A stretch of DNA of 64,000 nucleotides from Escherichia phage NHEP11. Below are positions 49,693 to 49,872 of this stretch, one piece after another. Where the stretch lies: sequence record PQ511149.1, one strand, 5' to 3'. A model generated the notes under the pieces. That model was not told the origin of the DNA. It saw only the letters and a list, made by a program, of their open reading frames with translations, and ran no database searches. The position numbers and the translations under genes are program-made. The first letter of the stretch is position 1; the number at the start of each line of letters is the position of its first letter.

Positions 49693-49872
49693 TTAACCCT
49701 TCTTAAGTAAGTCGTAAAAACCACCATTCACATGTTTAGGAGCAGAAACCCGACGAGTAGACAGACGATGACATTCAGGGCAAACATCGTTTTCTCGTTC
49801 AGAGATCCTTTTAATTTTTTCATATTCATGACCACAATCTTCAGATTGACATTTATAGTCGTATAACGGCAT
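49693..49872 (-). CDS. zinc-ribbon protein (59 aa), not in ORF track
   Basis: Hand translation MPLYDYKCQSEDCGHEYEKIKRISERENDVCPECHRLSTRRVSAPKHVNGGFYDLLKKG; C-x4-C and C-x2-C pairs. Confidence 0.5.
   Translation of the reverse strand: MPLYDYKCQSEDCGHEYEKIKRISERENDVCPECHRLSTRRVSAPKHVNGGFYDLLKKG

Follow-up and report, generated by a model that had tools for sequence, protein, structure and literature searches.

Gp31 of phage T4 and CocO of phage RB49 are small phage proteins that adapt host GroEL for phage protein folding (references listed in PMC5649160). Both form heptameric, Cpn10-like lids in place of GroES. The product of the T-even gene 39.2 (NwgI), which was reportedly first isolated from phage RB69, resembles them in being a small phage protein that tunes the GroEL machine. 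It is, however, unrelated to the two lids, a zinc ribbon of 59 aa that acts on the chaperonin as a modulator and not as a cap, and, unlike Gp31 and CocO, it has been described as non-essential on wild-type hosts. The homologues from T4, RB43, and RB49 are said to have behaved alike, and over-production of the protein was reportedly lethal to the host. In the summary given by the senior author of the work on T4, 39.2 encodes a 58-aa peptide that subtly modulates GroES/GroEL. The summary cites genetic and biochemical evidence suggesting that Gp39.2 moves GroEL to an open, co-chaperonin-binding conformation, and it describes a T4 39.2 deletion mutant as fully blocked on hosts with specific groEL mutations (PMC5153855). 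The passages of a second source that deal with Gp39.2 describe it as altering the open/closed equilibrium of GroEL (PMC4396842), and the gene is presented in both as dispensable on wild-type hosts (PMC5153855; PMC4396842).

The window analysed here was a stretch of 64,000 nucleotides of Escherichia phage NHEP11 DNA (PQ511149.1). The ORF listing gave an ATG-initiated ORF of 59 aa on the minus strand at 49693..49872 (-), with the translation MPLYDYKCQSEDCGHEYEKIKRISERENDVCPECHRLSTRRVSAPKHVNGGFYDLLKKG. The translation made by hand in the initial annotation agreed with this listing letter for letter, and the C-x4-C and C-x2-C pairs read from it were present as C8/C13 and C31/C34. That annotation gave no strand; the 59-aa frame is on the minus strand, and translation of the plus strand of 49693..49872 was interrupted by many stops. 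Table 1 shows the features of the locus and their positions.

Table 1. Features of the 39.2 locus in the Escherichia phage NHEP11 window
Feature	Position	Strand	Evidence or description
cef	50285-50512	-	Pfam T4_Cef
goF orthologue, upstream neighbour	49875..50285	-	74% identity to T4 goF
Shine-Dalgarno AAGGA	49879..49883	-	within the final goF codons, ATG 6 nt away
39.2 CDS, 59-aa zinc-ribbon protein	49693..49872	-	profiles, RB69 identity, dN/dS
First zinc knuckle, C8-x4-C13	49834..49851	-	C8 invariant, C13 conserved in at least 90% of 50 sequences
Second zinc knuckle, C31-x2-C34	49771..49782	-	C34 invariant, C31 conserved in at least 90% of 50 sequences
Tail motif, A44-P-K-H-V-N-G-G-F-Y-D54	49711..49743	-	conserved; candidate partner-binding motif
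goF-like paralogue, 141 aa, downstream neighbour	49265..49690	-	phrog_622, E = 4.6e-21
Terminator-like GC hairpin followed by T-run	49251..49266	-	scan, AAGGGCTTCGGCCCTT + TTTGCTTTAG
Gene 39, DNA topoisomerase II large subunit, 605 aa	47384..49201	-	Pfam HATPase_c, DNA_gyraseB, TOPRIM_C

The window protein was 100% identical to ORF006c of phage RB69 (NP_861696.1), from which it shows no difference at the protein level, and 100% identical to the phage ST0 product FDI17_gp107. If the first isolation of 39.2 from RB69 is correct, the exact protein encoded in the window would be the one originally selected. Comparison with the intact T4 Gp39.2 (58 aa, strain GT7) showed 82.5% identity over 57 aa, with 10 substitutions and one extra Lys in the window protein. 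The window, T4, and RB69 proteins are alike in length (58-59 aa), in the four ligand positions, and in the GGFYDLLK(K)G tail, and in all three genomes 39.2 follows goF and precedes the topoisomerase gene. A difference was observed before gene 39, where T4 has the unrelated 66-aa gene 39.1 and the window has the 141-aa goF-like paralogue. The 1.5 kb around the ORF were 97-98% identical to phages WFL6982, JN02, ST0, and PhAPEC2, and the window belongs to a Mosigvirus, a T-even phage of the RB69/JS09 kind. The gene name 39.2 is used in the RB32 and T4 records, and the ECD7 record notes 'gp39.2'. Judged by these comparisons, the window ORF is the Mosigvirus (RB69-type) allele of the T-even early gene 39.2 and, by orthology, probably encodes a GroEL modulator. 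The initial annotation had described the gene as unannotated, and the novelty implied by that word fails because the RB69 protein is identical and the gene is annotated in most relatives. It is the already known 39.2 (NwgI), an ordinary T-even gene. Records that omit its annotation include T4 GT7 and fPS-2.

Shortened versions of 39.2 were observed in some deposited genomes. The T4 reference record NC_000866 lists the gene as 45 aa because of one extra T, GCTTCCTAAG against the in-frame GCTCCTAAG (L002 3660-3840). T4 GT7 and all relatives, the T4 reference aside, read through the T4 frameshift point, and the 58 aa of GT7 is the length given in the literature. Versions of 47 aa are present in Shigella phage vB_SsoM_113 and Salmonella phage Manna, in which a frameshift after the 'CP' of the second knuckle leads into an alternative frame (...NVIVCLLVGLLLLSM) and the last ligand is lost. 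The frameshifts in these two phages reflect either errors of sequencing or a true loss of function in a gene that is dispensable.

Profile searches showed a match of residues 1-42 to Pfam PF09723 (Zn_ribbon_8) with 49.3 bits (E = 5e-13; gathering cut-off 34.4 bits) and a match to NCBIfam TIGR02605 (FmdB family zinc ribbon protein) with 48.0 bits (E = 9.4e-13; curated cut-off 31.3 bits). The 39.2 product also matched PHROG 1076 (E = 1.9e-12). On tblastn, 955 phage records matched the 59-aa protein, and 912 of them spanned at least 80% of the query. Between the window and the T4 GT7 allele, dN/dS was 0.068 and third codon positions held 25 of the 37 nucleotide differences, and all five nucleotide differences between the window and the ST0 39.2 were synonymous. 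Strong purifying selection on 39.2 is supported by the data.

It is exceedingly improbable that 39.2 is non-functional, whether as a chance ORF or as a decaying remnant. A chance ORF would fit the length of merely 59 codons and the records in which 39.2 is not annotated, and a remnant would fit the frameshifted copies deposited for the T4 reference, vB_SsoM_113, and Manna. Against this stand the dN/dS of 0.068 with its third-position bias, the profile E-values of about 1e-12, intact homologues at the equivalent locus across genera, a conserved Shine-Dalgarno sequence, and the experimental phenotypes that the senior author's summary describes for the T4 orthologue (PMC5153855). The conservation statistics refute both the chance-ORF and the remnant reading. 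The ORF is a genuine gene and an orthologue of 39.2 at the syntenic position. Its proposed identity as a small FmdB-type zinc-ribbon gene was borne out by two profile libraries, PHROG 1076, ligand conservation, dN/dS, and synteny in Straboviridae genera, and the ORF, whose absence from relatives would have spoken against it, was found in several Straboviridae genera at an equivalent early-region position. Two overlapping ORFs, 49728..49835 (-) and 49732..49866 (+), were rejected as genes; they were without family support, and the substitution pattern fits the 59-aa frame. The end of the overlapping ORF 49728..49835 (-) corresponds to the out-of-frame C-termini of the frameshifted vB_SsoM_113 and Manna entries.

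When 1.84 billion representatives were searched exhaustively with HMMER, 252 relatives were returned at E <= 1e-3. Knuckle spacings were counted in 144 small relatives, and conservation was read from a 50-sequence alignment. The first knuckle was CxxC in 86 of the 144 relatives, Cx4C in 38, CxC in 11, and a Cys/His variant in 9, and the second knuckle was CxxC in 135 of 144. In the T4-like phages, the first knuckle was Cx4C in T4 and RB69, CxC in Moon, CxxH in ECD7 and Muldoon, and CxxC in Miller. The initial annotation had named unconserved cysteine spacing in homologues as a point against the zinc ribbon. The ligand positions and the pairs were kept, but the spacing of the first pair varied (CxxC, Cx4C, CxC, and CxxH); such variation is usual for zinc ribbons and is no meaningful refutation.

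As in the FmdB family, the domain of the window protein starts at the initiator Met with MPxYxYxC (MPLYDYKC in the window), its two Cys pairs are set apart by the 17 residues between C13 and C31, and both curated cut-offs were exceeded. The protein differs from the family (CxxC_CxxC_SSSS) in having C-x4-C and not CxxC as its first knuckle; since C-x4-C is common in the family, membership is not excluded. It also differs in having no Ser/Gly-rich low-complexity C-terminus, as it ends with GGFYDLLKKG at residue 59. The FmdB family has no established function, whereas the 39.2 subfamily has one. AlphaFold2, run with the 50-sequence alignment, gave a mean pLDDT of 79.9, with about 87 and four short strands for residues 1-40 and 59-68 and a short helix for residues 41-59. 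A sequence search of the PDB found no relative, and its only matches were insignificant ones to bL31 (E of at least 0.3). An FmdB-type homologue of 81 aa was observed in Serratia phage IME250 (Ackermannviridae), just upstream of a gp33-like gene (L008 2001-2246); the record annotates only the last 41 codons (2121-2246) as hypothetical, so the zinc ribbon is unannotated there.

The protein ends five residues after GGFYD. The pattern AP(K/R)x(V/I)xGG(F/Y)YD was common to the T4-like subfamily, including the homologues of Moon, ECD7, Muldoon, and Miller, and a GGFYD-type tail motif was found in 19 of the 144 representatives. In the 50-sequence alignment, conservation of G51 was at least 90%. The tail motif aligned with the bacterial FmdB segment SAPxFxxKGxGWYxTD(Y/F) ('KGxGWY'), which makes the tail a feature of the family and not a phage invention. 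In the predicted model, the tail (residues 44-54) is probably flexible, and it may serve as the GroEL contact motif with the zinc ribbon as its scaffold.

In the window, cef, goF, 39.2, the goF-like ORF, and gene 39 follow one another on the minus strand. The window, ST0, RB69, and T4 have the order cef-goF-39.2-(x)-39 in common, and gene 39 was annotated likewise in RB69 and ST0. In Moon, ECD7, and Miller, the block that holds the homologue lies immediately upstream of the gene for the topoisomerase II large subunit. The Muldoon (Muldoonvirus) homologue was located in an equivalent early block (dexA/motB/cef), and the stretch examined there had no topoisomerase gene. More distant homologues in Moonvirus, Krischvirus, and Pseudotevenvirus, each positioned shortly upstream of the topoisomerase gene, showed 38-50% identity.

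The goF stop codon (TAA, 49877-49875) is followed after 2 nt by the 39.2 start codon (ATG, 49872-49870), and the AAGGA Shine-Dalgarno sequence was identical in the three sequences compared (window, RB69, and ST0). The 39.2 stop codon (TAA, 49695-49693) is likewise followed after 2 nt by the start codon of the downstream 141-aa gene (ATG, 49690-49688); GAAGGG at 49702-49697 stands ahead of this ATG. With a gap of 2 nt on each side, the tight packing of 39.2 between its neighbours is real, and the translational coupling to both that the initial annotation had proposed is a plausible reading of these junctions. The same annotation placed the gene upstream of gene 39. This is right in the transcriptional sense, but the two genes are not adjacent, since the 141-aa gene and the hairpin lie between them. 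Related records annotate a terminator between the 39.2 block and gene 39, and 39.2 is probably not obligatorily co-transcribed with gene 39. A scan for sigma-70 promoters gave 20 sites against 20.5 expected from shuffled sequence, and as this was no better than the shuffled sequence, no promoter was assigned. No Rfam families were found in 47000-53500.

Several observations were made on the neighbouring genes. The listed goF start, TTG at 50303, is doubtful. Homology to T4 goF begins at Met7, the ATG at 50285, which is probably the true start, and ST0 and RB69 annotate goF as a 411-nt gene. This ATG and the cef stop codon share one base, which gives the block one more tightly coupled junction. 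The 141-aa gene at 49265..49690 (-) belongs to the same PHROG 622 as goF, showed 29% identity over 103 aa to T4 goF, and is annotated as hypothetical in ST0 and RB69; as it is a distant goF paralogue, the Mosigvirus 39.2 is flanked on both sides by goF-family genes. At 51154-52679 (-), three consecutive genes (139, 186, and 178 aa) matched Pfam motB (PF17613) and had the C-terminal motif GFISD(Q/R)WVEDG.KLYNIVF in common; the shared motif and the PF17613 matches identify them as a tandem array of motB-family paralogues. Gene 39 is unsplit, with the parts corresponding to T4 gp39 and gp60 fused and TOPRIM_C and GyrB_C at the C-terminus; neither a gene 60 bypass element nor a mobA insertion is therefore present in the window.

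The early block in which 39.2 lies alongside motB-family genes, the filing of PHROG 1076 under 'transcription regulation', and the label 'FmdB-like transcriptional regulator' in ST0, T4, RB69, Miller, and Muldoon would all fit a product that binds DNA or RNA polymerase and acts on early or middle phage transcription or on host transcription, with the GroEL phenotypes as an indirect effect. Such a role is very unlikely. The label is a name transfer from a single 'putative regulatory protein' FmdB, which is not known to bind DNA, and a literature search for FmdB and zinc ribbon gave no functional study. Above cut-off, Pfam and NCBIfam matched nothing but the generic zinc ribbon of about 40 residues, and no DNA-binding domain was recognisable beyond it. 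The sole experimental data on the orthologue, in the senior author's summary, are allele-specific genetics and biochemistry that concern GroEL (PMC5153855).

In T4-type genomes, 39.2 and the phage co-chaperonin gene do not lie side by side. In Yersinia phage fHe-Yen9-04, the FmdB-type gene g260 (69 aa; Pfam 40.9 bits) was observed 20 nt upstream of g261 (L011 2001-2517), which is a Cpn10/GroES gene (Pfam Cpn10, 61.2 bits). Pairs of the g260-g261 type were conserved in 72 Rak2-like jumbo-phage records, down to 67% nucleotide identity, and the phages with the pair included 121Q (614/615), PBECO4, GAP32, CBB, BF, and XbC2. As the Rak2-like phages form one clade, this adjacency counts as about one evolutionary event. 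The g260 product resembles the window protein in the Cx4C first knuckle, in the inter-knuckle motif KI(S/A)(E/D)RE, and in 53% identity over the 36-residue ribbon. The KI(S/A)(E/D)RE motif was present in 14 of the 19 GGFYD-tail proteins against 15 of 125 others. The g260 product differs in its tail (...YFRGNWFANTGGY), which is without GGFYD, and its gene adjoins a Cpn10 gene, unlike 39.2 in T4-type genomes. Given that T4 Gp39.2 modulates GroEL, the jumbo-phage pair may hint independently, through genome organisation, at a connection between zinc ribbon and chaperonin; as a link between FmdB-type ribbons and the chaperonin, it is suggestive only. No Cpn10 or Cpn60 neighbours of family members were found in one bacterial genome and in three metagenomic contigs with g260-like tails. 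In two of these three contigs, an RNase_T exonuclease was located near the FmdB-type gene (L015 1342-2139; L016 753-2988), which resembles the dexA-39.2 adjacency in ECD7 and suggests that the early-region synteny reaches uncultured T4-like phages.

The wide occurrence of the family bears on a further reading, in which the 39.2 product is a general zinc-ribbon adaptor whose principal host targets are others, such as a protease, a ribosome-associated factor, or a defence protein, with GroEL as one target among them or a secondary effect. Among bacteria, the FmdB family occurs very widely and in gene contexts that are unrelated, the one bacterial example examined had no chaperonin neighbour, the Ackermannviridae homologues adjoin gp33-like and SSB genes, and the Vequintavirinae also have homologues. 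The tail motif in common with bacterial FmdB points to an older, more general partner, and the lethality said to follow over-production would also suit an adaptor of this kind. This reading is nevertheless unlikely. No other target is reported in the literature found, the adjacency to GroES in the jumbo phages points to the chaperonin, and so does the allele-specific suppression of groEL/groES mutants described in the senior author's summary (PMC5153855).

The preferred and likely reading is modulation of GroEL, and on orthology the RB69-type allele in the window would modulate GroEL as T4 Gp39.2 does. The protein consists of a four-ligand zinc ribbon (residues 1-42) followed by a short, probably flexible tail with the motif APKHVNGGFYD. 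It would be translated by coupling with goF, in an early transcript that would end at the hairpin before gene 39. During infection, the product would act on host GroEL, presumably by direct contact, and would bias it to the open state that binds host GroES or phage Gp31. In this way GroEL-dependent folding, notably that of the phage major capsid protein, would stay efficient on hosts in which the interaction of GroEL with its co-chaperonin is poor. As 39.2 is dispensable on wild-type hosts and frameshifted in some deposited genomes, its contribution is conditional.

A wider extension would make FmdB-type ribbons with a GG/aromatic tail a general class of GroEL/GroES modulators, covering the jumbo-phage genes and possibly bacterial FmdB, with the tail docking on the GroEL apical domain like the GroES mobile loop. 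The mobile loop has the sequence GGIVL, which may resemble the GG-aromatic tail. This extension is unlikely as a whole.

For this window itself, the finding is of little significance, as 39.2 is a known, non-essential T-even early gene with a characterised product. It does bear on the records of the family: annotation pipelines spread the label 'FmdB-like transcriptional regulator' for a protein that has been characterised experimentally only as a GroEL modulator, and the T4 reference record carries a truncated 39.2. Few members of the very large bacterial and phage family FmdB/Zn_ribbon_8, to which no function has been assigned, have been handled in experiments. The 39.2 orthologue is one of them, and the shared tail motif together with the zinc-ribbon/GroES pair of the jumbo phages offers a testable lead for the FmdB family.
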